This document shows, piece after piece, positions 4,697 to 63,505 of a stretch of DNA of 64,000 nt; the stretch's first letter is position 1, and each line of letters begins with the position of its first letter. The stretch is taken from assembly GCA_903908245.1 (NCBI GenBank), contig CAIVRE010000014.1, positions 31,963 to 95,962 on the forward strand, written 5' to 3'. Made by a program: the position numbers and the translations under genes. This DNA is from Candidatus Omnitrophota bacterium (lineage in GTDB: Bacteria > Omnitrophota > Gorgyraeia > Zapsychrales > Fredricksoniimonadaceae). The notes beneath the pieces were generated by a model. It saw only the letters and a program-made list of their open reading frames with translations, was not told the DNA's origin and ran no database searches.

Positions 4697-4721
4697 ATCC
4701 CCTCCTTGAAATAAAAAGATC

Positions 4722-5051
4722 CTACCATTTCTTGAAAATAAAGAACACTGCCGCGATGATAAACGCGAATCCCACCAGATAATTCCACTTGAAAGGTTCC
4801 TTTAGGTACCACACTGAAAACGCGCTGAATACCACCAAAGTAATAACTTCCTGGACGGTCTTAAGCTGTGCCGCGTTGAACTGCCCGTAGCCCCAGCGGT
4901 TGGCCGGGACCATCAGGCAATATTCAAAGAACGCGATCCCCCAACTGGCCAGAATGACCAGCCACAAAGGCTGGTCCCTGAACTTCAAATGCCCGTACCA
5001 GGCGAATGTCATAAAAATATTGGAAAAAGTCAGCAAAACGACCGTTATCAT
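4722..5051 (-). CDS. Small DMT-superfamily membrane protein (DUF486/COG3169-like)
   Basis: About 4 TM helices in 109 aa; conserved MVPANRWGY-type motif. Confidence 0.45.
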   Translation of the reverse strand: MITVVLLTFSNIFMTFAWYGHLKFRDQPLWLVILASWGIAFFEYCLMVPANRWGYGQFNAAQLKTVQEVITLVVFSAFSVWYLKEPFKWNYLVGFAFIIAAVFFIFKKW

Positions 5052-48190: not shown

Positions 48191-48365
48191 ATCATCCCTT
48201 TCGTTAAAAGACCCCCGCCGACATCTTTATCGACGGGAAAATAATTCAGAACGATCAGCCTGATCCCGCAGGATCATGCCTATATTACCTCGGCGCGGGA
48301 CTGTGTCAAATTAATTTCTCGCATTGCGCCGCAAAGAACCCGACCATCTTCCTGTCGCCCCTGCC

Positions 48366-50153
48366 TTATGGGGCACATCTGTCATTAACACAATGATTGC
48401 TGTCACATTCCCAATCATTCTGATAACAAAGAGATCCGATGGAACGATCGGTGCAGGTCGCGTACGATGTTTCACAAAAGATCTGGCACTGGTCCTGCGC
48501 GCCGCAATGTTCGCCAAGAGCCCCGTTGGTGCAAGCCCGCTGCCACCCCGAATCATACCCGCAGAACCCCGTCTCGCAAGAACTGTTGTCCGTACACGGA
48601 TCGCCGAAAACCGCTTTCGTCGCGGAGCATTTAAAACCGACACAATAACTTCCGGAACAGTCCGCGCCTGAATCACACCCAGACCCGACACTGCCATCCC
48701 CGCAGCTGGAATGGATACACTGCCCCGACTGACAACTGGAATTGTCCGTGCATGCCGCGCCGGCCGCGCCGGGAGAAGCCTGGCATATCCCGTCAACACA
48801 AAAACCGGATACACAAAAAAGCCCGGAAGAACAGAAATCCCCGTCCGCAATGCTGTGTGTAGCCACGCACGCCCCCGTTGCGGTGTCGCACGACTCTTCC
48901 GCAGTACAACAATTCACCGGCTCGGCATACGCCCAGCCGATGTTCTGTGTGCAGGCGGTAGTGCCATTGGGACAACAATATCCCGGAGCCCAGAACCAGC
49001 CCAGATTGTTGTTATTATTCGCGCAAAAGGTCCCCGCGCCGCAACATGTCATTGGCTGCGAATAACCGCAACATTCATCCCCGTTATTGCAGCAGGTCGC
49101 ATCATGCCCTCCGCCGCTGCTGCACACGAACTGGCCGCTGTTACAGCACTGGACCCTTCCCACGACGGATACGCCGCAACTGTTATCCAGCGGGCAGCAA
49201 TTCCCGACATTGGCAAAATTCTTGCAGCAATACTCCCCGCCGGAACATGTTGCTCCGGCACAATCGGCATCTGCCACAGCAGAACAATAATCCCCGCCGA
49301 CTCTCGGGACATACAATTCCCCTGCAGCGCACGACCCTTGAGTATATCCCGTAAAAACACAACTGCTGGCCGTGCAGGATTGTCCCGCGCCACACGTCGA
49401 CCAGCAACCACCGCAATTGTAGGGGTCCGTGGCAAAATCCGCGCAACTGCCCCAGCAACACCCGGGGTTCTCTCCGCCGCACACATTCCCCGGGCTGCCG
49501 CAATTATTGATATCCCAATTAGTATCGATACAACCGCCGCCACTGCAATAAGAACACCAGTTGCCGCAGCCACCGCAATTGTTGGGATCAGAAGCAAGGT
49601 CCGTACAGCCGCCCCAACAGCACCCGGGGTTCTCCCCGCCGCACACATTCCCGATGCCACCGCAATTATTGACATCCCAGTCTATGTCGACACAACCGCC
49701 ACCGCTGCAATAAGAACACCCGTTGCCGCAACCGCCGCAATTATTAGGATCCGTCGCAAGGTCTGTACAGCTGCCCCAGCAGCACGCGGGATTCTCTCCA
49801 CCGCACACATTCCCGCAACTGCCGCAATTATTAATATCCGAATCCGGATAGACACACGCCCCGGAACAATCGGTCTCGGCTGGAGTGCACCCGCAGACCC
49901 CTCCGACACAAGGCCGCCCGTCGCCGCAAACAGTCCCGCAACCGCCGCAATTATTGGCGTCAGATGTAATATCGGCACAACTGCTGCCGCAACAAATGGT
50001 CCCGCCCGTACAGGTGCCGCAAACCGGGTTCACCCCGTCCTTGAACGGACTGTTCGTGGCCAAAGGGACAGTCGTTATGGCAAAAGCCTGGTTATGCGCC
50101 ACAACCAGAAAAAGCCCCAGGACGATCAAAGAGAACAGCCGGATCATTTTCAT
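48366..50153 (-). CDS. Secreted cysteine-rich protein with about 7 Stig1-type repeats followed by further Cys-rich modules (paralog A)
   Basis: Signal peptide MKMIRLFSLIVLGLFLVVAHNQAFA; repeats CCWG(S/G)CTDLA(T/S)DPNNCGGCGN-C; over 100 Cys in 595 aa. Confidence 0.7.
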   Translation of the reverse strand: MKMIRLFSLIVLGLFLVVAHNQAFAITTVPLATNSPFKDGVNPVCGTCTGGTICCGSSCADITSDANNCGGCGTVCGDGRPCVGGVCGCTPAETDCSGACVYPDSDINNCGSCGNVCGGENPACCWGSCTDLATDPNNCGGCGNGCSYCSGGGCVDIDWDVNNCGGIGNVCGGENPGCCWGGCTDLASDPNNCGGCGNWCSYCSGGGCIDTNWDINNCGSPGNVCGGENPGCCWGSCADFATDPYNCGGCWSTCGAGQSCTASSCVFTGYTQGSCAAGELYVPRVGGDYCSAVADADCAGATCSGGEYCCKNFANVGNCCPLDNSCGVSVVGRVQCCNSGQFVCSSGGGHDATCCNNGDECCGYSQPMTCCGAGTFCANNNNNLGWFWAPGYCCPNGTTACTQNIGWAYAEPVNCCTAEESCDTATGACVATHSIADGDFCSSGLFCVSGFCVDGICQASPGAAGAACTDNSSCQSGQCIHSSCGDGSVGSGCDSGADCSGSYCVGFKCSATKAVFGDPCTDNSSCETGFCGYDSGWQRACTNGALGEHCGAQDQCQIFCETSYATCTDRSIGSLCYQNDWECDSNHCVNDRCAP

Positions 50154-50165
50154 ATCACCTCTGCC

Positions 50166-50585
50166 TTAAAAAGAAATATCCCCGGCATCCGAGATCGCGG
50201 CTGGCTGGCTTTGCCCGGGAAGACCGGCGGAAAAAACCACATAATACCTTCTGTTGCTTGAAACAAGATACTTGTACTCGCTGGTCGCTGTCGCGCCGAA
50301 AGGATCGTACAAAGGCGCTTTGATCAGTTGCGGGGTCGCAGGGATCAGGGCAGACGCACAGATGGTATCCGTCCCCGCAGGAAAAGACCTTTGGTGAATA
50401 TAATACGCCTCCAGCGCAGCCTGCAAGGCTTTGACCTCACTCTGGGCCCGGGTGACCCTGCCCTGGTCCTGCATGCCCTTGATACGAGGCACAGCGATCC
50501 CGATCAAGATCCCCAGCACGGCAAGAACAACAAGGAGTTCCAGAAGGGTAAAACCTTTAGGCCTGCTGACCGGCTCTGACGCCAT
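50166..50585 (-). CDS. GspG/PulG-like major pseudopilin (paralog of 57836-58291)
   Basis: Prepilin N-terminus KGFTLLELLVVLAVLGILIGIAVP plus GspG-type motif RIKGMQDQ. Confidence 0.8.
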   Translation of the reverse strand: MASEPVSRPKGFTLLELLVVLAVLGILIGIAVPRIKGMQDQGRVTRAQSEVKALQAALEAYYIHQRSFPAGTDTICASALIPATPQLIKAPLYDPFGATATSEYKYLVSSNRRYYVVFSAGLPGQSQPAAISDAGDISF

Positions 50586-50599
50586 AAAACACCCCCCTC

Positions 50600-50926
50600 T
50601 TATTTCACCTGGGCCGGTGTCTGCATCGCGGCCTTATGCGCTAGGGCACGCTCTTTCGCCAACTTCATCTGCTCTTCGATCCTGGCCGCAACTTCCGGAT
50701 TAGCCTTGAGAAAAGCATCCCGTTCGGCATTCAACTGTTCGTTGAGCGCCTTGCGCGCCTCGGCCTGTTTTTTCATCAAGGCAGACCATTCCGCCTGCCC
50801 GGCAAATTGATCCGGCCGAACAATTGCCTGCGCGGCAGCGGGCTCCGTCGATGCAGCCGGCTGGGCAAAAGACATTGCAGGAAGAACCATTAACGCCGCG
50901 ACCACTCCCAGGAATACTTTCTTCAT
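50600..50926 (-). CDS. Small secreted helical protein (Spy-like?)
   Basis: Signal peptide; Ala/Lys/Glu-rich helical 108-aa protein. Confidence 0.4.
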   Translation of the reverse strand: MKKVFLGVVAALMVLPAMSFAQPAASTEPAAAQAIVRPDQFAGQAEWSALMKKQAEARKALNEQLNAERDAFLKANPEVAARIEEQMKLAKERALAHKAAMQTPAQVK

Positions 50927-51146
50927 AACCTTCTCCTTTGTTATTTATAATGATAACCAAACCCGGTCCCTGCCTGGCCCCCCGTTCGGGGAGGACAGTC
51001 GATCATCAGCTGCACGTCCCCGTTGCGGTATTGCACGACTGTCCGGCCGTACAACAATTGATCGGCTCACCGTACGCCCAGCCAAGGTTCTTCGCGCAAG
51101 CCGTCGTGCCATTGGGGCAACAATATCCCGGAGCCCAGTACCAGCC

Positions 51147-52889
51147 CTAGCTGTTGTGATTATTCGCGCAGAATGTCCCTGCTCCGCAACATGTCATCGG
51201 ATTGGAATAACCGCAGCATTCATCCCCGATATTACATACTGTCGCGTCATGGCCCCCTCCGCTTACACAGGCAAATTGGCTGCTGCTGACACAGGCGACC
51301 CTTCCGACAACGGACGAACTGCATGTTTGGTCCATATCGCAACAAACCTGGTCCCCGCTGCCACCCCACCCGTTCACTGCCGCGTAATTCTTGCACGAAT
51401 ATTGCGTAGCCGAACAACCGCTATCCCCGGCTTGCGTACAATAACTGCCGCCGCCCTGATTTGCGATCTCCATTTGCCCCGCAGGGCACTGGCAGACGCT
51501 ATCAATGCAAGTCTTGCTGCCTGTGCACACATTCCCGCACCAGCCGCAATTGTTATTATCAGCGCTCATATCCTCTAGACAACTGCCACCGGAACAGCAG
51601 CCTAAAGGACATACATTCCCGAGACTGCCGCAATTGTTGGGATCCGAATTTAAATCCACACAACTGCTCCCGATACAACTCGAAGGACACCAATTGCCGC
51701 AACCGCCGCAGTTGTTCGTATCCGTTGCAAGGTCACTGCACCCGCCCCAACAGCACGAAGGGTTTTCTCCGCTGCACACGTTCCCGACACTGCCGCAATT
51801 GTTGACATCCCAATCCAGGTCATAACAGCCGCTACCGACACAATAAGGACACCAGTTCCCGCAGCCGCCGCAATTATTCGTATCCGTCGCAAGGTCCGTA
51901 CAACCACCCCAGCAACACGCGGGATTATCCCCATAACACACATTACCGGGGCTGCCGCAATTATTGACATCCCAGTTCATATCCGGCGTACAAACACCCG
52001 CAGTACAATAAGGAAGGTCCCAAGGGCACACATTGCCACAGCTGCCGCAATTATTTGTATCCGCATTGGTATCCACACAAAACCCGGAACAGATCGTCAG
52101 CCCGCCCGGGCAGCTGGTGCCGCAACTCCCCGTTGAAGTATCGCAAGCCTCCTCGGACGTACAGCAATTGACCGGCTCCATATATGCCCACCCGCCCCAA
52201 TACGCGCAAGTCGTCGTGCCGGTAGGGCAGCAATATCCCGGGGCATAAAGCCAGCCGAAAGGATTATTATTATTCGCGCAAAACGTTCCCGGGCCGCAGC
52301 AGGTCAGCGGATTGGAATAACCGCAGCATTCTTCCCCGTTATTGCACACGGTCGCGTCATGCCCCCCCCCGCTTATACAAGCGAATTGATTATTGCTGAC
52401 ACATCCAACCCTTCCAACAACAGAAGCACTGCAGGTTTGATCGGTCTCGCAACATGTCTGGTCAGTGCTCCCGCCCCACCCATGAATAGCATAATAATTC
52501 TTGCACGCATATTGCGTCGATGAACAACCCGTATCACCCGGTTGCGCACAATAACTGCCGCCGCCCTGGTTCCAGATCTGCATCTGCCCCGCGGCACAGG
52601 TCCCCTGGTTATAAGGAAGAACAACCGTACACGCTCCGCTGGAACAGGCTTTTCCAACACCGCAAACAGTCCCGCAACCACCGCAATTATTGACATCGGA
52701 AGAAATATTGACGCAACTGCTGCCGCAACAAACAGTACCGCCCGAACAGACCCCGCAAGCCGGATTTATCCCGCTCTGATACGGGCTATTGGTTGCCAGA
52801 GGAACAGGCTTTATGGCCAGGGCCGTGTTGCCTGCCGCAACCAAAGAAAACCCGAGGACAATTAGAAGAAACAGCCTGATCGTTTTCAT
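51147..52889 (-). CDS. Secreted cysteine-rich Stig1-repeat protein (paralog B, modules in a different order)
   Basis: N-terminal 90 aa about 75% identical to paralog A; Stig1-type repeats in the C-terminal half; a CCGxGTFCANN module occurs twice. Confidence 0.7.
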   Translation of the reverse strand: MKTIRLFLLIVLGFSLVAAGNTALAIKPVPLATNSPYQSGINPACGVCSGGTVCCGSSCVNISSDVNNCGGCGTVCGVGKACSSGACTVVLPYNQGTCAAGQMQIWNQGGGSYCAQPGDTGCSSTQYACKNYYAIHGWGGSTDQTCCETDQTCSASVVGRVGCVSNNQFACISGGGHDATVCNNGEECCGYSNPLTCCGPGTFCANNNNPFGWLYAPGYCCPTGTTTCAYWGGWAYMEPVNCCTSEEACDTSTGSCGTSCPGGLTICSGFCVDTNADTNNCGSCGNVCPWDLPYCTAGVCTPDMNWDVNNCGSPGNVCYGDNPACCWGGCTDLATDTNNCGGCGNWCPYCVGSGCYDLDWDVNNCGSVGNVCSGENPSCCWGGCSDLATDTNNCGGCGNWCPSSCIGSSCVDLNSDPNNCGSLGNVCPLGCCSGGSCLEDMSADNNNCGWCGNVCTGSKTCIDSVCQCPAGQMEIANQGGGSYCTQAGDSGCSATQYSCKNYAAVNGWGGSGDQVCCDMDQTCSSSVVGRVACVSSSQFACVSGGGHDATVCNIGDECCGYSNPMTCCGAGTFCANNHNS

Positions 52890-52999
52890 ATCACCAGCAA
52901 ATTAATATTAGAAGAAAACTCCGCAGATTAATGAACAATCCGCTTTAAAGCCTCAGAAAAAGATTACTCCCAAAAAGAGGATTCAAGAAATATTTTCTT

Positions 53000-53575
53000 T
53001 TATGGCATGCCCGGCAAAAGCTGCTGCTGATCCGGCTGGGCGGACTGCATTTCCTGCGGAAGGTCCTGCGGCGGTGTCTTCTGGAGTTCCGGCTGAGGTT
53101 CCGGCTGGGATTCCTGCTGTAAAAGAGTCAGGACCATCTCTCTCCCTCCCCCGGCAATGATCACCGAATCCTCCCGGATGGCCTTGACCGCCATCCCGCC
53201 TCCCACATCGGCCCCGACACCAACCACGATATCATTGATAATAGCACTGGGTAAAGCACCGCTGGATATAATGCCCGTCAGGATATAACGCTTCATTGAA
53301 ACCGGTGCCTTAACGGCCATTACCGGAGGGGTCACCGGCTTGACCATCGTTTTGAACGCGCGTGAATCAAACGGGTCCCTTTCGCCCCAATCCACCGAAA
53401 TATAGCCGTCATCACTGCTCTTGTCGGCGTTGATCAGGTCCATCAGCTCTTTCTGATCCGACAGGACCGCTGCCGAAGAAACGGCCGGATCAGCTTGCGC
53501 GGTCCTGATCCCGACCGGCACAAGCGCCACAACCGCCCAGCAGCACATAAGAATGATTTTTTTATTTCTGTCCAT
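53000..53575 (-). CDS. PilP-like pilus assembly lipoprotein
   Basis: Signal peptide; C-terminal beta-domain pattern YILTGIISSG..P.AII..VVGVGADVGGGMAVKAIREDSVII like PilP. Confidence 0.55.
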   Translation of the reverse strand: MDRNKKIILMCCWAVVALVPVGIRTAQADPAVSSAAVLSDQKELMDLINADKSSDDGYISVDWGERDPFDSRAFKTMVKPVTPPVMAVKAPVSMKRYILTGIISSGALPSAIINDIVVGVGADVGGGMAVKAIREDSVIIAGGGREMVLTLLQQESQPEPQPELQKTPPQDLPQEMQSAQPDQQQLLPGMP

Positions 53576-54089
53576 TGTCTTTTGCCACCCACAACACGAA
53601 CGTCATCTTCGCTGTCACCTGTTCCAGGCTGGTGCCCTGCGGCCGCACCCGCAGGCTTTCAACCGCAATGATCCCCTCGGGCATATTCCTGACCGCCGTC
53701 AGAAAAAGTCCGAGATCCTTGAAAGAAGACACGGTTTCAACCCCCATGGGCATCCGTCGATAGATCTCTTTCTTTTCCTTCTCAACCCCGTACGGCCTCA
53801 AAGTGACGATCCCCACCCTGTTTTCCTTGGCCAGCCTGGCAAGGACGTCCTTGGCCAAAGGAAGGCTTTCTTTGGTGAACAACCGCTGACGCGCATCGCC
53901 AGCACTCCTGGCCGAAAGAAGGCTGCGCAAAAAAAGATTCTTCTGGGCATACCCATTCTGCTGCTCATAAAACTCTTTATTCGCCTCAATAACAGGAGAA
54001 CATAAAAAGAATGCCAAAAAACCCAGGAACAGAATAACGGCGAACGAGGAAATATAAAAAACGATCTTTTCATCTATTTTAAAGTTCAT
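53562..54089 (-). CDS. PilO-like inner-membrane pilus assembly protein
   Basis: Single N-terminal TM plus ~140-aa periplasmic domain; sits between PilMN and PilP; overlapping stops/starts. Confidence 0.55.
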   Translation of the reverse strand: MNFKIDEKIVFYISSFAVILFLGFLAFFLCSPVIEANKEFYEQQNGYAQKNLFLRSLLSARSAGDARQRLFTKESLPLAKDVLARLAKENRVGIVTLRPYGVEKEKKEIYRRMPMGVETVSSFKDLGLFLTAVRNMPEGIIAVESLRVRPQGTSLEQVTAKMTFVLWVAKDNGQK

Positions 54090-55813
54090 TTTTTTGCTTC
54101 CCCCTGCCCCATACGCCCCTCGATCTGAAACTGCGTAACATTGGCCGTCCTTGGCATCTTTTGAGACGGCAAAAGGCGGGCCGAACTCACAATATCCTTG
54201 TTAAGGTCCAGCACGAGCTGAGCCGGCGCTTCCTGCGCTTCCCGCCCGTCACCAACCACCATCCCCGACAAAGTCACCCTGTCGCCATCGAGATTGATCT
54301 CGGTCAAACAAACATTCCTGGGAAGATAACTTAACTGTTTGAACAGAACACTCATGTCCGGACGGGTGCGCGCCAGCATTTTCACCTTAAGCTCGCCTTT
54401 GAACCTCTCGACCTGCGGCAAAAGGCCTTCGTATTCGCCTCTGGAAAACGCCAACCGCGCGCGGTTCGCATCCCTTTCCGCCGACAGGCCATGATACGCA
54501 CCACCCAGGACCAGAATGACGGCCGCCGCCGACAGGCCGGCAACGATCTTCCTGACAAAGATCTTTTTCCGTTCTTTAAGATGGCTCGGCAAAAGGTTGA
54601 TCCCGTGCGGATCCCCGAGCGAAGCCCCGATCGCCAGGACCAGCCGATGGGCCTCTTCCTCATTACGCACAACACCATCATAAAGAAGTTCAATGTCCTT
54701 GAGCGGATTACCCAAATGGACCGGCAGATTCAGCTCGGCGTTCAGATATCCCGGTAAACCTTTAAGCCTGGCCCCGCCGCCGAACACGATAAGCCGGTCA
54801 ACCGTACCGACACGCATCTTGTCGCGGTAGAAATCGAAGGAACGCGAGATCTCGCCCACGAACTGTTCAAGCCTTGGGCGCAGCAACGCCAGGATCTGCG
54901 GAGCCGAGATCTTGCCGTTAATGATAAAATCATCGTCCGGTGAAGGCAGCCCGTGATCCCTTTTGATCTGCTCGGCCTCTTCGAGCGTAAGCTCGATCTT
55001 TCCTGCGTTGGTGAACATCGCGCGGGTCAGGCTGCGGGTCAGGTCCGACCCCGTCACCGTGATCTGACGCGAGAACTCCAGCCTGGAATTCCGATAGAAA
55101 TTCAATTCCGTGCCGATGGTCCCCATTTCAAGGACCGCGATCGTTTCCTCCATCCGGAGCTTGGACTTCTTGATGATATTCTCCATGGCCAATGCCAGCG
55201 GGATAATGGCGCTCACATTAAGCCCCAGCGGCGACTCGTCGGCCATGCCCGCTTCGCCACCGGACAACGGCTTTTCCCGCTGGGAAATAAAATGCGACAA
55301 AAGATCATCCACGGACGACTTGGCGGCCGCCGCCACCATCACATTCATTTTCTCCACACCCTTGTCCATGACACGGCCCAGGACTTTGAAATCCACCACC
55401 GGATTCTTGATGGCGAAATGCTGGGAATTGAGGACCTCCAGCCTGATCGCGTCCACCAGGTCCCCCGGCGGCATGACAGGCAGGACCATATTCTCGACCA
55501 TGGCCTGCCGGCCGAAAAGGACACAAACGATCTCCGCCCGGCGGGTATTAAAGTCCGCCAATACCGACTTAAGGGCCGCGATGGCCGCGGCCGCGCGCTG
55601 GTTCTCGTCGGAAATATCAATGCTTCGGACCGCCGTCTTGATCAGTGTGGGTTTCCCCCGGTAAATGGCTGTCTGCGCCACGCTCACCGAAGCATAACTG
55701 ATATCGATGCCGATGACCGACCGGCCGGCGCACAAAGCTTTCTGAAGCCTGAGCTGCTGCGGATCGGCCATTGCTGTGTCCTTGAGCGCCTCGGCTCCGC
55801 CGCCTTCAACCAT
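54086..55813 (-). CDS. PilM-PilN fusion protein (actin-like ATPase-fold PilM fused to TM/periplasmic PilN)
   Basis: PilM-like N-terminal 380 aa (GIDISYASV...), then PilN hallmark INLLPSHLKERKK followed by a TM helix. Confidence 0.75.
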   Translation of the reverse strand: MVEGGGAEALKDTAMADPQQLRLQKALCAGRSVIGIDISYASVSVAQTAIYRGKPTLIKTAVRSIDISDENQRAAAAIAALKSVLADFNTRRAEIVCVLFGRQAMVENMVLPVMPPGDLVDAIRLEVLNSQHFAIKNPVVDFKVLGRVMDKGVEKMNVMVAAAAKSSVDDLLSHFISQREKPLSGGEAGMADESPLGLNVSAIIPLALAMENIIKKSKLRMEETIAVLEMGTIGTELNFYRNSRLEFSRQITVTGSDLTRSLTRAMFTNAGKIELTLEEAEQIKRDHGLPSPDDDFIINGKISAPQILALLRPRLEQFVGEISRSFDFYRDKMRVGTVDRLIVFGGGARLKGLPGYLNAELNLPVHLGNPLKDIELLYDGVVRNEEEAHRLVLAIGASLGDPHGINLLPSHLKERKKIFVRKIVAGLSAAAVILVLGGAYHGLSAERDANRARLAFSRGEYEGLLPQVERFKGELKVKMLARTRPDMSVLFKQLSYLPRNVCLTEINLDGDRVTLSGMVVGDGREAQEAPAQLVLDLNKDIVSSARLLPSQKMPRTANVTQFQIEGRMGQGEAKK

Positions 55814-55825
55814 AAACAGGATCCT

Positions 55826-56944
55826 TCATTTCTCACCCCAGCTGTTGGGGACCGGCGTAAAGCCGGATCCCGCCGTATCGCCTGCGTAGATCTGCGCGAT
55901 CTCGATCGAAGACAAAGCCCTGTTGTAAAGACGGACATCGTCCATTGTCCCGGAAAAATACAAATTATTATCCCGCATATTCGAACCTATGACCAGAGCG
56001 TAATTCCCGTTGTAACTGACATCCTTGGCGGCCGTTGATGTCCCATCCGCAAGGCCATCCAGATAATATTTCCCGCCCGTGCCTCCGCTTTTCACAAAAC
56101 ACACATGATGCCATGCCCCGTCATTCACGCCGGTATTGCTTCCCGCGCCGGCCGGAAACCCATAGCCGCTGTCCCAGTCCCAGAAAACCATCTTGTGATT
56201 GGAGTAAACCTCCCAAACACACTCTCCGGCTATACTGGCGGCTGTACGCCCCAAAGACAGGATAAAACACTCCCCGGCGCAAGCGGTCTTGATCCATGCA
56301 CAAACCGTCAGATTCGAACGGGGAGGATTATTAAATGTCGTCCTTGTCAAATAAGAGCTGCTCCCGTTAAAACTTAACGCCCCGACGCCGACCTTCCCCG
56401 CTGTCCAGGCCGGATCATTAACATACGTCCCCGTATTCCCCCTGCCGCTGGAATCCGCCGCCGTTATGGGCATCGTTCCGGAAGCTGCGTCATCGAACTT
56501 CCACCAGCCTACGGGGCCCATTCTCACGCGCTGGTATACGACCCGGGTCATTTGATTGACGGTCGACCGACCGGTGATATAGATCGAGCTGTCGGGAGCG
56601 TAATCCTCCACCCACATCGTATAACTGCCGCTGGTCAAATTTTCACTCCGTGGATCTGTTGGCCCCGCGCCGGCCGCCGCCGGATAAGCCGTCGTCCGCC
56701 ACGTCCCGTAAATACTCGCATCCGGCGCCGTGTTGAGCAGATACCACATCGCCTTGTTCACCCCCGCCTCCGCCAGATAGAACGCCTGGCTGCTGTTCAG
56801 CTGCCGGGCGGCGTTAAGCTGGGAATAGATCACCGTATTAATAAAGACCACCACAAAGACCACCAGCGCGAACATGAACATCATGGTCATCAAAAGAATA
56901 CTGCCGCGCCGGCCGCTGATCTTAAATATCGTCGATATTGTCAT
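55826..56944 (-). CDS. Minor pilin/pilus tip candidate: PilX_N-type N-terminal TM segment plus C-terminal LamG/concanavalin-like domain (start trimmed to MTISTIF)
   Basis: GRRGSILLMTMMFMFALVVFVVVF hydrophobic segment; C-terminal LamG_3 signature (...SGTMDDVRLYNRALSSIEIAQIY). Confidence 0.55.
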   Translation of the reverse strand: MTISTIFKISGRRGSILLMTMMFMFALVVFVVVFINTVIYSQLNAARQLNSSQAFYLAEAGVNKAMWYLLNTAPDASIYGTWRTTAYPAAAGAGPTDPRSENLTSGSYTMWVEDYAPDSSIYITGRSTVNQMTRVVYQRVRMGPVGWWKFDDAASGTMPITAADSSGRGNTGTYVNDPAWTAGKVGVGALSFNGSSSYLTRTTFNNPPRSNLTVCAWIKTACAGECFILSLGRTAASIAGECVWEVYSNHKMVFWDWDSGYGFPAGAGSNTGVNDGAWHHVCFVKSGGTGGKYYLDGLADGTSTAAKDVSYNGNYALVIGSNMRDNNLYFSGTMDDVRLYNRALSSIEIAQIYAGDTAGSGFTPVPNSWGEK

Positions 56945-56957
56945 TGGAAAAGAGCTG

Positions 56958-57434
56958 TCACAGGTTCCTTGGCCTGACCTTGCTGCGCACATGCACAACA
57001 GACCCCGCATTATCGGCGGAAAGGTCGATCGTGATCACGTTCCCGCTTTGACTGAACACCGTCGTGGCCGAAGGCTGTATCCTCGCTGCAATGGTGCCCC
57101 CGGTATCCGCAGGGTCCGCTGCCAGCCCTTTCAACAAACGATAAGAAATCGTGTTAAGAACAAAACGGTATTCTTTCGCCCCTGCCCCATCGCCCAGGTC
57201 GGCCTTGAACGTCACTTTTTGCCCGCTTAAAGATGTGATCTCGGTAGCCCGGCGAAGCTGCTTGACCATCAATTCCATGGCCTGGGACAGCTCCATCCTC
57301 GTGGAAGCACGGCGGTCCCCGGCGTCCCAAGAGCTCAGGCAAGCCAGGTAAACGAACACAACCGTCCCTGCGAGGATCGCCATGACAGCCGAAGAAATAA
57401 GAAGTTCAACGAGCGTAAAAGCCGTCTTGTTCAT
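56958..57434 (-). CDS. Pseudopilin (prepilin-type N-terminal cleavage/methylation domain)
   Basis: MNKTAFTLVELLISSAVMAILAG N-terminus. Confidence 0.7.
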   Translation of the reverse strand: MNKTAFTLVELLISSAVMAILAGTVVFVYLACLSSWDAGDRRASTRMELSQAMELMVKQLRRATEITSLSGQKVTFKADLGDGAGAKEYRFVLNTISYRLLKGLAADPADTGGTIAARIQPSATTVFSQSGNVITIDLSADNAGSVVHVRSKVRPRNL

Positions 57435-57442
57435 CCTGATCC

Positions 57443-57823
57443 CTAAAGCGTCCGGTTGGCCAGCAATGTTTCCAGGCTCACTTGCTGGTCAACGCCTTTG
57501 AATTTCCAGTAGATGATGACCTTCACTTGTTTCGGGTCGCCGGAAACGGTGATCTGGCGATCGTACAGGGCAAACGGCGCGCCAATATTCACCCGCGCCA
57601 CTGCCGCAACAGAGCCCCAACCCGTATCTTTAAGTACCTCCATCTGCTCCTGCGCCAGCGCGGACGCAACAACCATGCCTTCCACGCTCTGATCAGTGCC
57701 CAGCGCCTGGGACATCGCCCCAACCGCCGAAAAAACACCCACCGCCAGCACAATACCGGCCAACATCAATTCCAGCAATGTGAACCCGCCGTTGCGGGCA
57801 CGGCCCTTACACCTCATGATCAA
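57443..57823 (-). CDS. PilV/GspI-like pseudopilin
   Basis: GGFTLLELMLAGIVLAVGVFS prepilin N-terminus; 126 aa. Confidence 0.65.
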   Translation of the reverse strand: MIMRCKGRARNGGFTLLELMLAGIVLAVGVFSAVGAMSQALGTDQSVEGMVVASALAQEQMEVLKDTGWGSVAAVARVNIGAPFALYDRQITVSGDPKQVKVIIYWKFKGVDQQVSLETLLANRTL

Positions 57824-57835
57824 CTCCCGCTAACA

Positions 57836-58291
57836 TCAGATACAGCCGGCAACAGTTCCGTTCGTAACACAAATGCCGCCGTTAAGATTACCCGTGACCG
57901 CGGCACCGCCATCAGTAAGCGCGCTGATCGTTGGCGCAGTACCAGGCCCGACGGATATAATGATATAATAAAGCCCGTCCGTAGACTTAAGATACTTGTA
58001 CTCGGTCCCGGTGGCGGCGAACGGATCATAGAGCGGAGCAGCCACGATCTTGGGATTCAAGGCATTGAGCGTGCTGGCACAGATCGTATTACTGCTCGCC
58101 GGATAAGCATTGCTGTTGTTGATATAATACGACACGATCGCGGTCTGAAGCGTCTTGAGCTCGGACTTGGCTTTCTGGATATTGGCCTGGTCCTGCATGC
58201 CTTTGATACGCGGAACAGCGATGCCGATCAGGATCGCGAGGACCGCGAGCACAACGAGAATTTCGAGGATCGTAAAACCTTTTTTATTCAT
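57836..58291 (-). CDS. GspG/PulG-like major pseudopilin
   Basis: KKGFTILEILVVLAVLAILIGIAVPRIKGMQDQ; about 65% identical to the 50166-50585 product over the N-terminal half. Confidence 0.8.
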   Translation of the reverse strand: MNKKGFTILEILVVLAVLAILIGIAVPRIKGMQDQANIQKAKSELKTLQTAIVSYYINNSNAYPASSNTICASTLNALNPKIVAAPLYDPFAATGTEYKYLKSTDGLYYIIISVGPGTAPTISALTDGGAAVTGNLNGGICVTNGTVAGCI

Positions 58292-58322
58292 ACTGTTTCT
58301 CCTTTTTGTTTTTTACCGTCTT

Positions 58323-59552
58323 TTATCGTTGAATTGTTTTAACAAGGTCGAACATCGGCAGAATGACCGACGCCAACATTGTTCCTACGCATATCCCCAA
58401 GAAAGAAATGAACACCGGCTCAATGAACACGATCGACTGCTTGATCGCGAACTCCACTTTCAACTCGTAAAAATCCGCGACTTTATTGAGCATTTCTCCT
58501 ATTCTACCACTTTTCTCCCCTACAGAGATCATATATACCACGTCTCTGGAAAATTCCTGATGCCCTTCAAGCGCCGTATAGATCCCTTCGCCCTTCTCGG
58601 CACTGGCGCGCACCTCGCGCACGATCCCGGCGAAGACCATATTCCCGATCACATCCTCGACGATATCCAGGGCCCTCAGGAGAGGCACTCCGGAGTTCAG
58701 CATGGAACCAAAGGTCCGGCTGAAACGCGCCACGAACATATTGCACATCAGAGGACCGACGATCGGAAGCTTCAAAAGGACACGATGCCAAAGCTTCTTG
58801 CCGAACTCGGTCCCCAGGAATTGCCGGACACCCAGGACGAGCGCCCCCAGGATCAAAAAGAACAACACCCAATAATGCTGAAGCCATATCCCCAGGCTGC
58901 ACATCAATTGAGTGGCCAGAGGCAGCTCCACCCCGGCCTTGCTGAAGATCTCCGCGAACTTCGGGATAACGAACGTCAGGATCAACAGGATGACACCCGT
59001 GCCGACAGTCATCAATATCACCGGATACGTAAGCGCGCCAACGACCTTCTGCCTCAGGTCTTCCTGCTTTTCCATATGCACCGCCAGCGTCTTTAACACC
59101 TGGCCCATGGTCCCGGAAGATTCCCCGACGCGCACCATGTTGATGAAGAACGGGGAAAAGACCCGGGGATGCCCCTCCAGCGCGTCCGACAAAGACGACC
59201 CTTCCGAAACCTGCAGGGCGATCTTCTGCACCACACTCCCGAAATAAAGATTCCCCAGTTGCCCGGCAATACTGTTAAGCGCCCCCAGCAGCGGGATACC
59301 CGCGCCGACCATGTTGGAAAGGTTGACGCAAAAAAGCATCAGCTCCGCGATCGTCACGCGCGTGACCCGAACGACAGCGGGCGCCACAGGAACAGTGACC
59401 GCACTGTGCACAAGCGCGACCTCGCCGACCTTGACCGGCGTATAGTCCCTCCGGTGCAGCTGCCTGATCGCATCCTGCTCGTTCTCGGCTTCCACCTCGC
59501 CCGTAACCAGGCCACCGGCATTATTCCTGGCTTTATAAGAAAACACGATCAT
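58323..59552 (-). CDS. GspF/PilC-family inner-membrane platform protein
   Basis: Two T2SSF repeats, 3 TM helices, 409 aa. Confidence 0.85.
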   Translation of the reverse strand: MIVFSYKARNNAGGLVTGEVEAENEQDAIRQLHRRDYTPVKVGEVALVHSAVTVPVAPAVVRVTRVTIAELMLFCVNLSNMVGAGIPLLGALNSIAGQLGNLYFGSVVQKIALQVSEGSSLSDALEGHPRVFSPFFINMVRVGESSGTMGQVLKTLAVHMEKQEDLRQKVVGALTYPVILMTVGTGVILLILTFVIPKFAEIFSKAGVELPLATQLMCSLGIWLQHYWVLFFLILGALVLGVRQFLGTEFGKKLWHRVLLKLPIVGPLMCNMFVARFSRTFGSMLNSGVPLLRALDIVEDVIGNMVFAGIVREVRASAEKGEGIYTALEGHQEFSRDVVYMISVGEKSGRIGEMLNKVADFYELKVEFAIKQSIVFIEPVFISFLGICVGTMLASVILPMFDLVKTIQR

Positions 59553-59571
59553 TCAAGACCCCTCGCCCTTT

Positions 59572-61191
59572 TTATTCCTGCTGGATCACCCGGTAGACCT
59601 CTTCTTTCTTCGTCAGGCCTTCCTCGGCCTTCTCCATGCCGTTATCACGCAGGCTCTGCATCCCGGCCGAAAGGGCCGCACGGTTGATCTCGTCGGCAGA
59701 TGCCTTGCGCAGGATCAGCTTGCGGATCTCTTCATCAAAAACCATCAGCTCATAGATCCCGGTACGCCCCTTATACCCCGTCATGGAACAATTCTTGCAA
59801 CCCTGGCCGGCGCAATCCCGGCAGTTGAGGCGCACCAGGCGCTGCGCCATAACACCAATGATCGAAGACACCAGAAGGAACGACTCAACGCCGATATCCA
59901 GAAGGCGGGTCACCGCCCCGGCCGCATTGTTGGTATGAAGCGTCGCGAGGACCAAATGGCCCGTCAGGGACGCCTGGATGGCGATCTGCGCGGTCTCCAC
60001 ATCACGGATCTCGCCGATCATGATCACGTCGGGATCCTGCCGGAGGATCGCGCGCAGGCCCCGGGAGAACGTCAGGTCGACCGCCGGATCCACCTGTGTC
60101 TGGCGAATACCCGGCAAACGGTATTCCACGGGGTCTTCAATGGTCACGATCGATTTCTCGGGCGAGTTGATCGTGCTCACCGAGGAATACAGCGTGGTCG
60201 TCTTGCCGCTGCCCGTCGGCCCGGTGACCAGGATGATCCCGCTGGTGCGGGTCAAAAGGGCCTTGAACTTGGTCAGGTTCTCCTTGTGCAGGCCGATCTG
60301 CTCCAGGCCCAGCAGAATGGCACTGGTGTCCAAAAGCCGCAAGACCGCGTTCTCTCCGTAAACTGTCGGCAAAAATGAAATACGGATATCCACGCGCCGG
60401 CTGTCAAGCTGCATCTGAATGCGCCCGTCCTGCGGCTTGCGGCGTTCGGCGATATCCAGGCTCGCCAGGATCTTGAGGCGCGAAATGATCGCCGCGCGGA
60501 ATTGCTTGGGAGGCAATGCCTGCGGATACAATATCCCGTCGATCCGGAAACGGATATTCAGGGAAAGCTCCTCCGGCTCGATATGGATATCCGACGCCCC
60601 GTCGTTAACAGCCTTGATGATCATCGTGTTAACGAATTTAACCAGCGGAGACTCCTCCACCGACCCCTGCAGCCGGTGGACCTCGACCTCGTCGCCTTCT
60701 CTTACCTCGCGCTTCTGGTCGTCAAGGGTCTTGATCGCTTCCTGGATCCCGCTGGGCATCGCATAAAACTCCCCCAGGGCCTTCTTAACCTCGTCTTCCG
60801 TGGCAATAGCCGGATCGATCACAAGCCCTGTCCGGACCGTCAATTCATCGATCGCATAAAGATCAAAAACATCGACCATGGCGCAGGTCAGGCTGCCGCC
60901 GATCTTGAAGACCGGGATCACCTGGTACTTGCGCGCCATCTCCTCGGGGACCAGGCGGATCACCTCGGGATCGATCTCAAGGTTCCCGATCTCGATGCGG
61001 GGGATATCCGTCTGCTCGGAAATAAAATCGGCAAGCTTGTCCTGCGTGATCAGGCCCAGCCGCGGCAGGACCTTGATCGCGGGGTCCCCGCTGCTCTTTT
61101 GCTCGATCTGGACGCTTTCCCACTGATGCTGGGAAATAAGGCCCTTCTCGAACGCCAGCTCCCCGACGGCTTTCTTGGAATATTTAGCCAT
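59572..61191 (-). CDS. GspE/PilB-family assembly ATPase
   Basis: N-terminal GspE_N/MshEN-like domain; Walker A GPTGSGKTTT; Asp/His boxes; tetracysteine CRDC...CKNC motif. Confidence 0.85.
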   Translation of the reverse strand: MAKYSKKAVGELAFEKGLISQHQWESVQIEQKSSGDPAIKVLPRLGLITQDKLADFISEQTDIPRIEIGNLEIDPEVIRLVPEEMARKYQVIPVFKIGGSLTCAMVDVFDLYAIDELTVRTGLVIDPAIATEDEVKKALGEFYAMPSGIQEAIKTLDDQKREVREGDEVEVHRLQGSVEESPLVKFVNTMIIKAVNDGASDIHIEPEELSLNIRFRIDGILYPQALPPKQFRAAIISRLKILASLDIAERRKPQDGRIQMQLDSRRVDIRISFLPTVYGENAVLRLLDTSAILLGLEQIGLHKENLTKFKALLTRTSGIILVTGPTGSGKTTTLYSSVSTINSPEKSIVTIEDPVEYRLPGIRQTQVDPAVDLTFSRGLRAILRQDPDVIMIGEIRDVETAQIAIQASLTGHLVLATLHTNNAAGAVTRLLDIGVESFLLVSSIIGVMAQRLVRLNCRDCAGQGCKNCSMTGYKGRTGIYELMVFDEEIRKLILRKASADEINRAALSAGMQSLRDNGMEKAEEGLTKKEEVYRVIQQE

Positions 61192-61207
61192 AGTCTGCTC
61201 TCGACGG

Positions 61208-61609
61208 TCACACGCGAACGATCAATTCCTCGACCTTGCGCATCAATTCCGGGATATTGATCGGTTTGTTGATAAAAGCATCCACCTTCACCTGGGCACT
61301 GAGCCTCTCATCTGCCGCGTCGGCACTGGCCGTGACCATGATCACGGGGATCCCGCGAAACCGCCTGTCCGCCTTGATCAGGGCGCACGTCTTCAGGCCA
61401 TCCATCTTGGGCATCATCCGGTCGAGGATGATCAGGTCCGGAAGGCTTTGCTTCACCGCCGCCAGCGCCTCCTGGCCGTTATAACACTTGGCCACCTCAA
61501 AACCGGCCGCATGAAGGCTGGCTTCCAGGAACCTCACGATCCCCGGATCGTCATCAACCACAAGGATCCTTTTCTTGGCTGTCTCTTCTGTCACGGTCAT
61601 TCCCCTCAA
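61208..61609 (-). CDS. Single-domain CheY-like response regulator embedded in the pilus cluster
   Basis: Receiver residues (VVDDD, ...D..MP.MDG, ...T...K); no output domain. Confidence 0.7.
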   Translation of the reverse strand: MRGMTVTEETAKKRILVVDDDPGIVRFLEASLHAAGFEVAKCYNGQEALAAVKQSLPDLIILDRMMPKMDGLKTCALIKADRRFRGIPVIMVTASADAADERLSAQVKVDAFINKPINIPELMRKVEELIVRV

Positions 61610-61621
61610 GCTTTCTGTTGT

Positions 61622-63265
61622 TCACGGGCCTTTGGCGGCCGCGTCCTTGCTCTTGCGGCCAACCACTTCCTGGCACGCGTTCACGAACATTTCCGTCGTA
61701 TCAATATAAGAGCTGTTCGGAAAATTCTCCCTCATCTTCGCAAGCGCCTCACCCGCCGCTTCGCACTTATGGAACCCTTTCACATAAAGGGCGGCCACTT
61801 TGTACAGACAAAAATCGCTTTTCCCCGAATTAGGGAAATGCTGCAGGATCGTTTTATACGTTTTGATCAGCTCGGAATACAGGTAAAGGTCATCCGCCGG
61901 TTTTTTAGAAACATCTTTTTCCAGGCTCGCCGCATATGTCAACAATCCCGAAAGCAGGTCCATGTCCGGTTCCAGGGACTTGGATTCCACATAAACCCCC
62001 GGCTGGGCCCCGGGCTTATCGAACACCATCGGCTGGGTCGAACGGATGATATGGGGCGTAATAAAGACGGTCAGCTCGGACGTCTGGTCTGTGTCCGCTC
62101 GCCGCTGAAAGAACCATCCCAGGACAGGGACATTCCTGATGCCTGGCACTCCGTTCCTCGAACGGTCCTCGTTCTTGCTGATAAGCCCGCCGATAATGAT
62201 CGTCTCGTTATCCTTGACCCGGACCGTGGCGTCCGCTTCGCGGGTGCCGATCAACGGCGCCCCGTCGGAACTGTAACCGGTCACGGTCGATACCTCCGGG
62301 TGGATCTTCATCGTTATCCACCCGTCGGGAGAGACCATGGGGGTCACCCTCAGGGACGTCCCGACCTCGACATACGAAGTCCCCGATGTATTGGTGATCC
62401 CGCCCGACGACCCAGAAATGCTCGTTTGCGTCGACTTGTACGGGACGCGGTCGCCGATGATGATCTTCGCTTCCTGGCCGGTGAGGGTCGCAATGGATGG
62501 CGATGCCAGCACGCGCGCTTTGTCGCTCTGCACCAGGGCGTCGATCGTCACATTCGCCGCAAGGTATTTCAGGTTCGGCGTTAACAGCAGCTGGCCGCCG
62601 TCCGTATCTTTCGCCGAGGAGCCCGTGTTGAACTCCGCGGACTGAAGGCTTCCGTGCGGAGGAGTGACCTTGCTGGTAATGGAGGTCCCGATCTTTTCCA
62701 CCTCCGCGGTCTTGATATCGACGATCCTTGCCTCAATAAGGACCTGCATCGGCGGAAGGTCGATCTCCTTGAGGAGGGCCTTGATCTCCCCGATGTTCTG
62801 CGGATAATCCCTGACGACCAGGCTGTTGGTCGCAATGATGGTCTGGATATCCCCCTTGCTCGAGATCGCCTTGCCTAAAAGTTCTTTGGCATCCTTGACG
62901 GCCAGATAACTCAACGGCAGCGATTCGGTCGCCAGTTCCGCTTCCGATTTGGACATGATATAAACGATCTTGTCCTTGCGATAGAACGCGTAACCATTAA
63001 CGTCGAGGAAGGCCGTCAACGCCTCATCGATGGAAATATTCTTGAGCTTGGCGGAGACTTTCCCCGAAACGCTCTTGGAAATGACGATATTGAAATCGTA
63101 GGAATACGCCAGGGCTTTGAGCACGGACGACAGGTTGGCATTGTTGTAATCCAGGCTGACAAGCTGCGGAGGCCCGGCAAGGACAGAACCACCGTCGGCC
63201 GAAAAGGGCATCTGCCATGGGCCGGCAAAAAAGATCATCAGGGAAATGAGGACGCGTTTTAACAA
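61622..63265 (-). CDS. Secretin (GspD/PilQ family)
   Basis: Signal peptide, N0/N1-like domains, C-terminal secretin domain with VPGIRNVPVLGWFF motif. Confidence 0.8.
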   Translation of the reverse strand: MLKRVLISLMIFFAGPWQMPFSADGGSVLAGPPQLVSLDYNNANLSSVLKALAYSYDFNIVISKSVSGKVSAKLKNISIDEALTAFLDVNGYAFYRKDKIVYIMSKSEAELATESLPLSYLAVKDAKELLGKAISSKGDIQTIIATNSLVVRDYPQNIGEIKALLKEIDLPPMQVLIEARIVDIKTAEVEKIGTSITSKVTPPHGSLQSAEFNTGSSAKDTDGGQLLLTPNLKYLAANVTIDALVQSDKARVLASPSIATLTGQEAKIIIGDRVPYKSTQTSISGSSGGITNTSGTSYVEVGTSLRVTPMVSPDGWITMKIHPEVSTVTGYSSDGAPLIGTREADATVRVKDNETIIIGGLISKNEDRSRNGVPGIRNVPVLGWFFQRRADTDQTSELTVFITPHIIRSTQPMVFDKPGAQPGVYVESKSLEPDMDLLSGLLTYAASLEKDVSKKPADDLYLYSELIKTYKTILQHFPNSGKSDFCLYKVAALYVKGFHKCEAAGEALAKMRENFPNSSYIDTTEMFVNACQEVVGRKSKDAAAKGP

Positions 63266-63430
63266 ACGGATCAGGGACCCTCTATCTTTTTAATAAGATC
63301 AATAAAATATTTTAAGCCTCCCGCGCATCAAGCGGAAAAGACGTAGAAAAAATTTACCTATTATAAGAATTATATTAAGCAATCCGGGGGCTTTAAACAA
63401 GACAAAACGAACAATTCTCCCCCCAATGCG

Positions 63431-63472
63431 AAAAAACAAAAAACCCGCTGCAAATGTTCCTTTTGCAACGGG
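63431..63472 (-). terminator. Rho-independent terminator of the corA-like gene, separating it from the pilus cluster
   Basis: cccgttgcaaa/tttgcagcggg stem (1 mismatch) followed by U6GU6 on the minus-strand RNA. Confidence 0.5.
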
Positions 63473-63505
63473 CTCACTCAAATCGTTCCCAAAAAATATC
63501 CCGGC

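Follow-up and report, generated by a model that had tools for sequence, protein, structure and literature searches.

A type IV filament gene cluster followed by a cassette of Stig1-repeat, cysteine-rich protein genes in a Candidatus Omnitrophota bacterium

Introduction

The DNA described here is a stretch of 64,000 nucleotides (nt) from a Candidatus Omnitrophota bacterium (GTDB lineage Bacteria; Omnitrophota; Gorgyraeia; Zapsychrales; Fredricksoniimonadaceae), NCBI GenBank assembly GCA_903908245.1, contig CAIVRE010000014.1, positions 31,963 to 95,962 of the forward strand. The whole stretch is referred to as the window, and coordinates are counted from its first letter. On the minus strand the window carries an array of genes that runs without interruption from 63265 to 48366 and extends to 47714. 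The array begins with the genes of an ordinary type IV filament machine from a well-known superfamily, pilus-like and type II secretion system (T2SS)-like, and continues into a cassette with genes for two cysteine-rich proteins, designated Cys1 and Cys2, and for smaller proteins. A first-pass annotation, made from the sequence alone, had taken the array for a machine dedicated to the two cysteine-rich proteins. Here we present the annotation of the array, together with a comparison to related loci and to known systems.

Organization of the machinery genes

The machinery genes are separated by at most 31 nt or overlap, and the gene coordinates confirm the single minus-strand array with tiny gaps and overlaps of the first-pass annotation. 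Features of this part are listed in the order of transcription, with E-values of the family matches in brackets; lengths are given in amino acids (aa) or base pairs (bp).

63441..63475, minus strand: intrinsic terminator of the upstream corA-like gene (14-bp stem and T-run; fold -29.4 kcal/mol, z = -2.7)
63369..63397, minus strand: putative promoter-like site TTTAAA-17-TATAAT before the secretin gene (10/12 consensus matches; a consensus match only)
61622..63265, minus strand: secretin, 547 aa, with N0/STN-like and Secretin_N domains (Pfam Secretin 1.3e-48, Secretin_N 7.8e-10)
61208..61609, minus strand: receiver-only response regulator, no output domain (Response_reg 1.9e-27)
59572..61191, minus strand: GspE/PilB-family assembly ATPase with MshEN N-domain and tetracysteine motif (T2SSE 5e-135, MshEN 2e-20)
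58323..59552, minus strand: GspF/PilC inner-membrane platform protein (T2SSF twice, 7.6e-60)
57836..58291, minus strand: GspG1, major (pseudo)pilin with prepilin motif KKG|FTILE (N_methyl 3.8e-7, T2SSG 2.3e-5, each past its gathering score)
57443..57823, minus strand: GspI/PilV-like minor pseudopilin (weak NCBIfam PilV 2.3e-4, GspI 9e-4; N_methyl 0.013)
56958..57434, minus strand: GspJ-like minor pseudopilin (N_methyl 2.5e-5, GspJ 3.6e-4)
55826..56944, minus strand: K/PilX-like subunit with C-terminal LamG (concanavalin-like) domain, no E5 residue (Laminin_G_3 1.9e-25)
54086..55813, minus strand: PilM-PilN natural fusion, 575 aa (PilM_2 2.4e-22, residues 35-397)
53562..54089, minus strand: PilO/GspM-like bitopic protein (Pfam PilO 2.4e-5, 24.9 bits, cut-off 22)
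53000..53575, minus strand: PilP/GspC(HR)-like protein, the final conserved machinery gene (T2SSC 1.3e-4, GspC TIGR01713 1.2e-6, both below cut-off)

The terminator ahead of the array, a strong hairpin with T-run at 63475-63441 that had already been proposed, sets the array apart from the corA-like gene. Horizontal acquisition of the cluster was considered and rejected, as there is no compositional break and the G+C content stays at 0.54-0.57 across the cluster.

Expressed in T2SS terms, the gene order is D-(regulator)-E-F-G-I-J-K-L-M-C, i.e. the canonical gsp order with C shifted to the end, and not an order unlike any described system as had been supposed. Within the type IV filament superfamily a PilM-PilN fusion is equivalent to GspL, PilO to GspM and PilP to the HR domain of GspC. 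Because the order is the canonical one, the presence of PilMNOP-type proteins beside GspEFG-type components, correctly noted in the first pass, is to be expected and is no anomaly.

Searches with Pfam and NCBIfam profiles supported nearly all of the earlier component labels, but the matches to PilX_N (E 0.014), PilN (0.086) and Spy/LTXXQ are below threshold. Every NCBIfam equivalog or subfamily model of type IVa pili or T2SS scores below its cut-off on the cluster proteins. The secretin reaches 228 bits with PilQ (TIGR02515, cut-off 284) and 216 bits with GspD (TIGR02517, cut-off 351), and its nearest relative in the PDB is PilQ (8e-33), ahead of GspD (1.6e-24). No AMIN domains were detected on it in the Pfam and NCBIfam profile searches. 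Its C-terminal tail of about 140 aa (61625-62053, minus strand) is TPR-like (TPR_6 E 0.009, below threshold), contains FP.S.Y-type repeats resembling BamD/YbgF and is kept in relatives; possibly it serves the secretin as an integral domain of pilotin-like or peptidoglycan-contact function.

The ATPase scores equally with the GspE and PilB models, 570.8 bits and under the cut-off of both (GspE 630). As to a possible binding of cyclic di-GMP by its N-domain, the motif model gives 24.5 bits (cut-off 38), and no Arg is present in the first motif. The platform protein matches GspF (341 bits, cut-off 424) better than PilC (299 bits), both under their cut-offs. Pfam T2SSG exceeds its gathering score of 21 in GspG1 and in a second copy, GspG2, found in the cassette (24.8 and 28.5), while the GspG model TIGR01710 gives 58 and 63 bits, respectively, against a cut-off of 88.85. 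Both the GspI/PilV-like and the GspJ-like minor pseudopilins are kept in relatives; no GspH-like gene was found in the cluster by profile searches. The public gene call for the K/PilX-like subunit comprises 372 aa, and the open reading frame (ORF) reaches 57010. Its N-terminus matches PilX_N across the full profile, below threshold as stated, and a single-sequence AlphaFold2 model, too poor to be of use (predicted local distance difference test score, pLDDT, 37), predicts solely a long N-terminal helix.

In the PilM-PilN fusion an actin-like domain in the cytoplasm is joined through a single transmembrane segment to a periplasmic domain, which is a GspL-like architecture. Its profile matches PilM structures at 5e-33 and no GspL; the PilM model TIGR01175 scores 105 against a cut-off of 133. 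Pfam PilN (PF05137), sub-threshold in the window's own protein, is present in some homologues. The PilO-like and PilP/GspC-like proteins are kept in relatives. The earlier label 'PilP' stands insofar as a gene is conserved at the PilP position, but the weak match of its product is to T2SSC/GspC (1.3e-4); no PDZ domain was found in it by profile searches.

Two functions of a pilus were looked for in the window.

866..1936, plus strand: PilT/PilU-family retraction ATPase (TIGR01420 411.5 bits, cut-off 319.1; also found by tblastn)

The PilT/PilU gene lies outside the cluster, as had been reported, and would act in trans. The six-frame translation of the window contains no GxGDxK motif of a prepilin peptidase, a weak motif test that agrees with the first-pass annotation; the peptidase gene is presumably located elsewhere in the genome.

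Conservation of the machinery in other Omnitrophota

Related loci were collected from species-representative genomes, scanned with a 7-sequence alignment, and from metagenome contigs, and gene order was established by tblastn with the window proteins. The same machinery is found at at least 14 other loci, and all named ones are Omnitrophota metagenome-assembled genomes (MAGs). The PilM-PilN fusion has 17 detectable homologues among 5.8 billion proteins, the named ones again mostly from Omnitrophota MAGs. The shared order is secretin, regulator, ATPase, platform, one to three GspG, I-, J- and K-like subunits, PilM-PilN, PilO-like and PilP-like (loci L001-L007, L017-L024 and L029). Identity to the relatives amounts to 42-54% for PilM-PilN and 67-76% for the ATPase. 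In L001-L004, L006 and L029 an orthologue of the receiver-only regulator (52-66% identity) is encoded between secretin and ATPase. A sub-group (L006, L018, L020, L023) is without minor subunits.

In the relatives the N-terminal part of the K-like subunit is retained and is combined with 0-4 LamG domains, and one to four major-subunit paralogues are held. Varying copy numbers of LamG domains and major subunits are expected of an exposed, diversifying filament. Within the known superfamily the cluster forms a subtype of its own, which is restricted to Omnitrophota and stands between type IVa pili and T2SS. The 'atypical T2SS' of Geobacter (Pul/OxpG) was considered as an identity for the cluster and dropped, since the named PilM-PilN homologues point to Omnitrophota, as does the housekeeping protein YgiQ, whose gene lies in the window and which shares 88%, 87% and 80% identity with its counterparts in Omnitrophota MAGs; OxpG was set apart without sequence comparison.

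A receiver-only regulator gene also directly follows the GspE/PilB ATPase gene in two distant loci from Patescibacteria/Saccharibacteria (L009, 12125-14199, and L010, 6707-8788), so that the pairing of ATPase and regulator may be widespread.

At none of the related loci did tblastn yield a match to Cys1, Cys2, the 108-aa protein or the Spy-like protein of the cassette. What follows the PilP-like gene there is different from case to case: a DUF2079 membrane protein in L003 and L004, with a Band7 protein also in L003; two further GspG copies and then an ABC transporter in L006; Fic-pseudopilin fusions and additional GspG copies in L005, L017 and L007; and nothing related to the cassette in L018. 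No giant gene was present in the downstream flank of up to 10 kilobases (kb) retrieved for the related loci. The check suggested in the first pass, whether Stig1 genes always accompany the machinery, thus gave a negative answer, and so did the converse. Because the machinery occurs without the cysteine-rich genes at these loci, and the top three foreign Stig1 homologues lie away from pilus genes (see below), the machine is not dedicated to the cysteine-rich proteins.

The Fic-pseudopilin fusion is in frame and stands directly after the PilP-like gene in L005 (5141-6619); further copies are found in L007 at 4592-6037 and from 12159 to the end of the locus. The Fic domain measures about 315-340 aa (Pfam Fic 3e-13, HPFYDGNGSLAR motif); behind it come a perfect prepilin site, AKG|FTILEILVV..., and a GspG-like domain. 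As the Fic domain runs directly into the prepilin cleavage site, it occupies the place of the prepilin leader peptide. We know of no described Fic-pseudopilin fusion. Beside this gene in L005 (6648-10810, minus strand) are a reverse transcriptase (PADLOC RT / RT_UG26-like, 1e-38), an unannotated 580-aa protein and a PLD-family (DrmC-like) protein, which look like a defence-type reverse-transcriptase module.

The cysteine-rich cassette

The region 52889-47714 (5.3 kb) appears from these comparisons to be a lineage-specific add-on to the machinery. Its features are:

52923..52943, minus strand: weak, A/U-rich hairpin within the 110 nt that separate Cys1 from the PilP-like gene (8 pairs, 3 of them G-C; z = -1.2)
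51147-52889, minus strand: Cys1, 580 aa as called, homologous frame to about 51006 (Stig1 2.8e-17, 5 stretches)
50600..50926, minus strand: 108-aa helical protein (sm108) with signal peptide, no family match
50166..50585, minus strand: GspG2, second GspG-like pseudopilin (N_methyl 1.4e-8, T2SSG 1.7e-6)
48366..50153, minus strand: Cys2, 595 aa, 15.8% Cys (Stig1 8.2e-18, 5 stretches)
48212..48239, minus strand: G+C-rich 12-bp hairpin followed by UCUUUU, 3' of Cys2 (terminator scan and fold)
47714..48190, minus strand: Spy/CpxP-like periplasmic helical protein with LTDKQ and LSAEQ motifs (NCBIfam Spy 1e-7)

The hairpin at 52943-52923 is indistinct from shuffled sequences (z = -1.2) and unconvincing as a terminator, in line with the earlier remark that no recognizable terminator precedes Cys1. 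A promoter-consensus scan found no promoter-like site within 52889-53000, and the terminator/promoter pair that would have separated machinery and cassette is therefore not seen there. The transcription unit may end at the hairpin 48212..48239. A promoter-like site at 48309-48282, just upstream of this hairpin, precedes the Spy-like gene as its own, and the gap from Cys2 to that gene is 175 nt. The LTXXQ/Spy-like gene which the first-pass annotation had placed at the end of the array is present, but at 47714-48190 it lies beyond the 48366 boundary given for the array, and its label is weak: the Spy model reaches 32 bits against a cut-off of 174, and Pfam LTXXQ an E-value of 0.18.

Cys1 and Cys2 contain about 15% Cys each, carry AxA-type signal peptides and share a conserved N-terminus (VPLATNSP...). 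Cys1 is composed of a Sec signal, one Stig1-like unit, a module designated B, Stig1 repeats and a second module B; Cys2 of a Sec signal, Stig1 repeats, module B and a Cys-rich C-terminal repeat region. A 162-bp tandem repeat occurs in 2.2-2.7 copies within each gene. With 580 and 595 aa the proteins are not 'giant', as they had been called. Their description as Stig1 secreted proteins stands with regard to the five Stig1 stretches and the Sec-type signals in both, but Cys1 is cut by an in-frame TAG. The Stig1 repeats (PF04885) exceed the gathering score of 24.1 with 63.4 bits in Cys1 and 65.1 bits in Cys2, and there are hundreds of bacterial homologues; the MXAN_6577-like model NF041328 gives 55 and 62 bits, respectively, below its cut-off of 100. 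In contrast to the bacterial Stig1/MXAN_6577-like proteins, Cys1 and Cys2 combine the repeats with near-orphan parts and stand beside pilus genes. Cys2 has 899 homologues, among which, apart from Cys2 itself, only the in-genome paralogue Cys1 exceeds 57% coverage. In the others, many of which belong to Myxococcota, the similarity is confined to the Stig1 repeats (about 37% coverage, 30-40% identity). The neighborhoods of the top three foreign Stig1 homologues are unrelated and have no adjoining pilus genes. In an AlphaFold2 model of Cys2 (34-sequence alignment) residues ~40-270, the Stig1 repeats, form small beta-hairpin units with pLDDT >90, and the remainder is <50; Foldseek retrieved nothing significant for the model in the PDB.

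Module B is a non-Stig1 segment of about 165 aa present in three copies in the window. An exhaustive HMMER search matched it in 3 of 1.84 billion representative proteins, Cys2 itself included, and there was no match in JGI metagenome contigs; to judge by these searches module B and the C-terminal region are near-orphans. The two foreign relatives of module B are L036 1-850 (a 1.2-kb contig, GCA_020049755.1) and P0270 on L037; both lie on contigs of about 1 kb, which offer little gene context. In L036 module B is uninterrupted and is followed by a 98-aa helical signal-peptide protein weakly like the 108-aa protein of the window, which hints that a cysteine-rich protein and a small helical protein form a conserved pair of their own.

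The in-frame TAG (51147-51149, minus strand) cuts the second module B of Cys1. It is followed by 46 further in-frame codons (GWYWAPGYCCPNGTTAC...TATGTCS) that end with TGA TGA at about 51006. This frame can be aligned both to the part of the module that follows in Cys2 and to the first module copy of Cys1. The position of the TAG corresponds to a Leu (TTG) in Cys2. An identical 580-aa call is found on 11 contigs from several independent assemblies, which implies a fixed nonsense mutation or a read-through site and not an assembly error. Reassignment of TAG was rejected, as it ends 4 of 45 ORFs checked and is thus an ordinary, rare stop in the window.

GspG2 begins 14 nt after the sm108 gene and ends 12 nt before Cys2. 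It is 56% identical to GspG1, and the two are sister paralogues in a neighbor-joining tree, which points to a duplication within this lineage. A major-pseudopilin gene is not duplicated next to each cysteine-rich gene, as had been stated: GspG1 lies 5 kb upstream of Cys1, and GspG2 alone is in the cassette.

Downstream of the cassette follow a DUF748 (AsmA-like) gene (45685-47367, minus strand) and, two genes downstream of the cassette, a PilZ-domain gene (45181-45633, minus strand).

Comparison with known systems

With the type IVa pili of Pseudomonas, Myxococcus and Thermus the cluster shares a PilB-type ATPase, a PilC platform, PilM with PilN/O/P-like partners, a PilQ-like secretin, subunits with class III signal peptides and a PilT/PilU gene in the genome, and the top PDB sequence matches are to PilQ and PilM. 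It differs from them in being a single operon in gsp order with PilM and PilN fused, a T2SSG-domain major subunit and the regulator gene between those of secretin and ATPase. The secretin has a TPR-like C-terminal tail in place of detected AMIN domains, and the NCBIfam scores for PilQ, PilM and PilB are below cut-off. T4aP clusters (type IVa pilus) were reported in nearly all Omnitrophota by a TXSScan-based survey (PMC10066038).

The likeness to the canonical T2SS (Gsp/Pul/Eps/Xcp) lies in the D-E-F-G-I-J-K-L-M order, the GspG-type major pseudopilin, the I-J-K-like tip set, the one protein that links cytoplasm and periplasm at the GspL position, the GspC-HR-like protein and the candidate substrates beside the operon. 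T2SS substrates can indeed be encoded beside gsp operons, as in the case of PulA (pulA) and SslE (sslE). Unlike the canonical system, the one described here, known from its genes, has no GspH, GspN, GspO or PDZ domain that was found, and its L-position protein is a full PilM.

Preprints on Omnitrophota have described a conserved T2SS-like locus that precedes genes of very large secreted proteins and is accompanied by a downstream pilZ (bioRxiv 10.1101/2023.11.21.568195; bioRxiv 10.64898/2026.06.07.730766). It belongs to the same phylum, and a PilZ gene stands shortly downstream (45181-45633) here too. The rcpC gene and the Rotamase_2 peptidyl-prolyl isomerase (PPIase) of the giant-gene locus of the West-Roberts et al. 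preprint are absent here, and the downstream proteins are of about 590 aa and made of Stig1 repeats. No cluster protein matched RcpC or Rotamase, and the window contains no giant ORF.

The Amuc_1098-1102 cluster of Akkermansia muciniphila resembles the present one in that PilM-PilN matches the Amuc_1101 PilM-like family (8.8e-22) and the secretin the Amuc_1098 family. The scores are far under the family cut-offs (77 vs 650; 47 vs 750), and no Amuc_1100-like protein was seen in the cluster. The Akkermansia secretin (PilQ) bears a BamD/TPR-type domain (PMC4960237), whereas the TPR-like part is C-terminal in the window's secretin.

The order Cys1 - sm108 - GspG2 recalls the minor-pilin operon of Pseudomonas, where the large, Sec-exported non-pilin PilY1 is followed by the small PilY2 and the pilin PilE. 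PilY1 is an adhesin encoded among pilin genes. There is no sequence or domain similarity between it and the cysteine-rich proteins (no vWA, no beta-propeller), and the arrangement is not kept in the relatives of the window's cluster.

Interpretation of the locus

Our reading of the locus as a whole, to which we assign a probability of roughly 50%, is an Omnitrophota filament machine to which a lineage-specific cassette has been added, with the cysteine-rich proteins as its clients. A complete type IV filament machine would be encoded from 63397 to 53000. From what is known of the families, the GspE/PilB-type ATPase would power the GspF/PilC platform, and the platform would polymerize the major, GspG-like subunit, with the I-, J- and K-like subunits as primer and the K-like one bearing a LamG lectin-type domain. 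The PilM-PilN fusion, the PilO-like and the PilP/GspC-like proteins would connect the platform to the PilQ-like secretin, through which the filament would exit; the conserved receiver-only regulator probably gates the ATPase. In this lineage the cysteine-rich proteins would most likely be clients, either exported by way of the filament or displayed with it, in the fashion of PilY1 or of operon-linked T2SS substrates. Taken by itself, this client relationship is put slightly below even odds.

As to the kind of filament, the cluster sequences lean to type IVa pili, with the secretin near PilQ and the fusion near PilM. A lectin-tipped surface filament for attachment is most likely and is favored over a pure secretion piston, because the LamG copy number varies between relatives, major-subunit paralogues multiply and a PilT gene is present, and because there is a precedent: a minor pilin with a lectin module has been found experimentally at the pilus tip of Streptococcus sanguinis (PMC9934059). 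A serious rival, though on balance unlikely, is a true T2SS whose short periplasmic pseudopilus works as a piston; the cysteine-rich proteins would then be folded substrates encoded along with it, and their periplasmic holdases would be the Spy-like protein and the 108-aa protein. Such a system would account for the gsp-like order, the GspL architecture of PilM-PilN, the T2SSG domain in both major subunits, the higher score of GspF over PilC, the GspC-like last machinery gene, the lack of PilT in the cluster and the Sec signals on the cysteine-rich proteins, and it would fit the preprint reports of Omnitrophota T2SS-like loci beside large secreted proteins. On the other hand, all T2SS equivalog models stay below cut-off, the sequences are closer to PilQ/PilM than to GspD/GspL, and neither GspH nor a PDZ-bearing GspC nor a GspL profile match was obtained. 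At the positions of the T2SS platform proteins GspL and GspM the sequence is that of PilM (5e-33) and the partner that of PilO, despite the GspL architecture. A variable lectin-bearing tip subunit and several major-subunit paralogues suit an exposed pilus better, and rcpC and the PPIase of the published Omnitrophota locus are missing.

A bolder version combines the two families. The cluster could be a living intermediate between type IVa pilus and T2SS, in which PilM/PilQ-type sequences are combined with gsp order and a GspG-type subunit, and in which PilM and PilN are fused where GspL would stand. This lineage would then have recruited a client cassette, and its duplicated major subunit, GspG2, would make the filament suitable for exporting or presenting the two disulfide-rich Stig1/module-B proteins, which would serve contact with host or prey cells. 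We regard this as a speculative and rather improbable elaboration.

For the link between machine and cassette, we infer that transcription of the machinery operon probably continues into the cassette and that the cysteine-rich genes share its transcription unit. The link is supported by the 110-nt gap without convincing terminator or promoter-like site, by GspG2, the sister paralogue of GspG1 embedded with spacers of 12-14 nt, and by the AxA-type signal peptides of both cysteine-rich proteins. Contiguous genes on one strand, no strong terminator between machinery and Cys1 and a pseudopilin copy inside the cassette, speak for the original idea that the whole 15-kb array is a purpose-built, undescribed system to export or display two Stig1-repeat proteins. 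That idea is largely refuted by synteny, as the machinery occurs without cysteine-rich genes at the 14 or more loci; together with the top three foreign Stig1 homologues away from pilus genes, the canonical gsp order and the stop codon in Cys1, this makes it very improbable. A more serious alternative, which we consider possible though doubtful, is that machine and cassette are merely neighbors: the cassette would be functionally independent and would encode Sec-exported periplasmic or cell-surface proteins with small chaperone-like partners of their own, landed in a variable operon 3' end, and GspG2 would be a spare major-subunit variant. The variation of the region past the PilP-like gene in every relative (DUF2079, Band7, ABC transporter, Fic-pseudopilin fusions, extra GspG) agrees with it, as do the extra GspG paralogues after that gene, without cysteine-rich genes, in L005, L006 and L007, the module-B gene of L036 with its small helical protein, which suggests a self-contained pair, and promoter-like sites within the cassette. 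It is harder to reconcile with the tight spacing of sm108, GspG2 and Cys2 (12-14 nt), with the lack of a convincing terminator/promoter pair before Cys1 and with GspG2 as a lineage-specific duplicate sited exactly within the cassette.

Several points weigh against the reading of an Omnitrophota filament machine with a client cassette. The association of machine and cassette is seen in one organism, the same genome from several assemblies, and hence lends no comparative support to the client relationship; the operon 3' end is variable in all relatives. Co-transcription is presumed from the lack of strong signals in the gap. The premature TAG within a module of Cys1 could mean that the cassette is decaying, and the neighbor-joining tree of the GspG proteins carries no support values. 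With regard to the pilus nature of the machine, gsp order, T2SSG-domain major subunit, GspF score above PilC and GspC-like matches are T2SS-like, no AMIN domains were detected on the secretin, and the cluster is without PilT, which may work for a different pilus system that the genome encodes elsewhere.

Significance

A natural PilM-PilN fusion in gsp order bears on the origin of the GspL of T2SS from pilus parts. The predatory or symbiotic contact apparatus of the Omnitrophota is inferred from genomes only, and the cargo link proposed here, which rests on adjacency in one organism, is plausible. If the client relationship is true, the locus would be a compact and tractable case of a type IV filament machine that gained lineage-specific cargo or adhesins.

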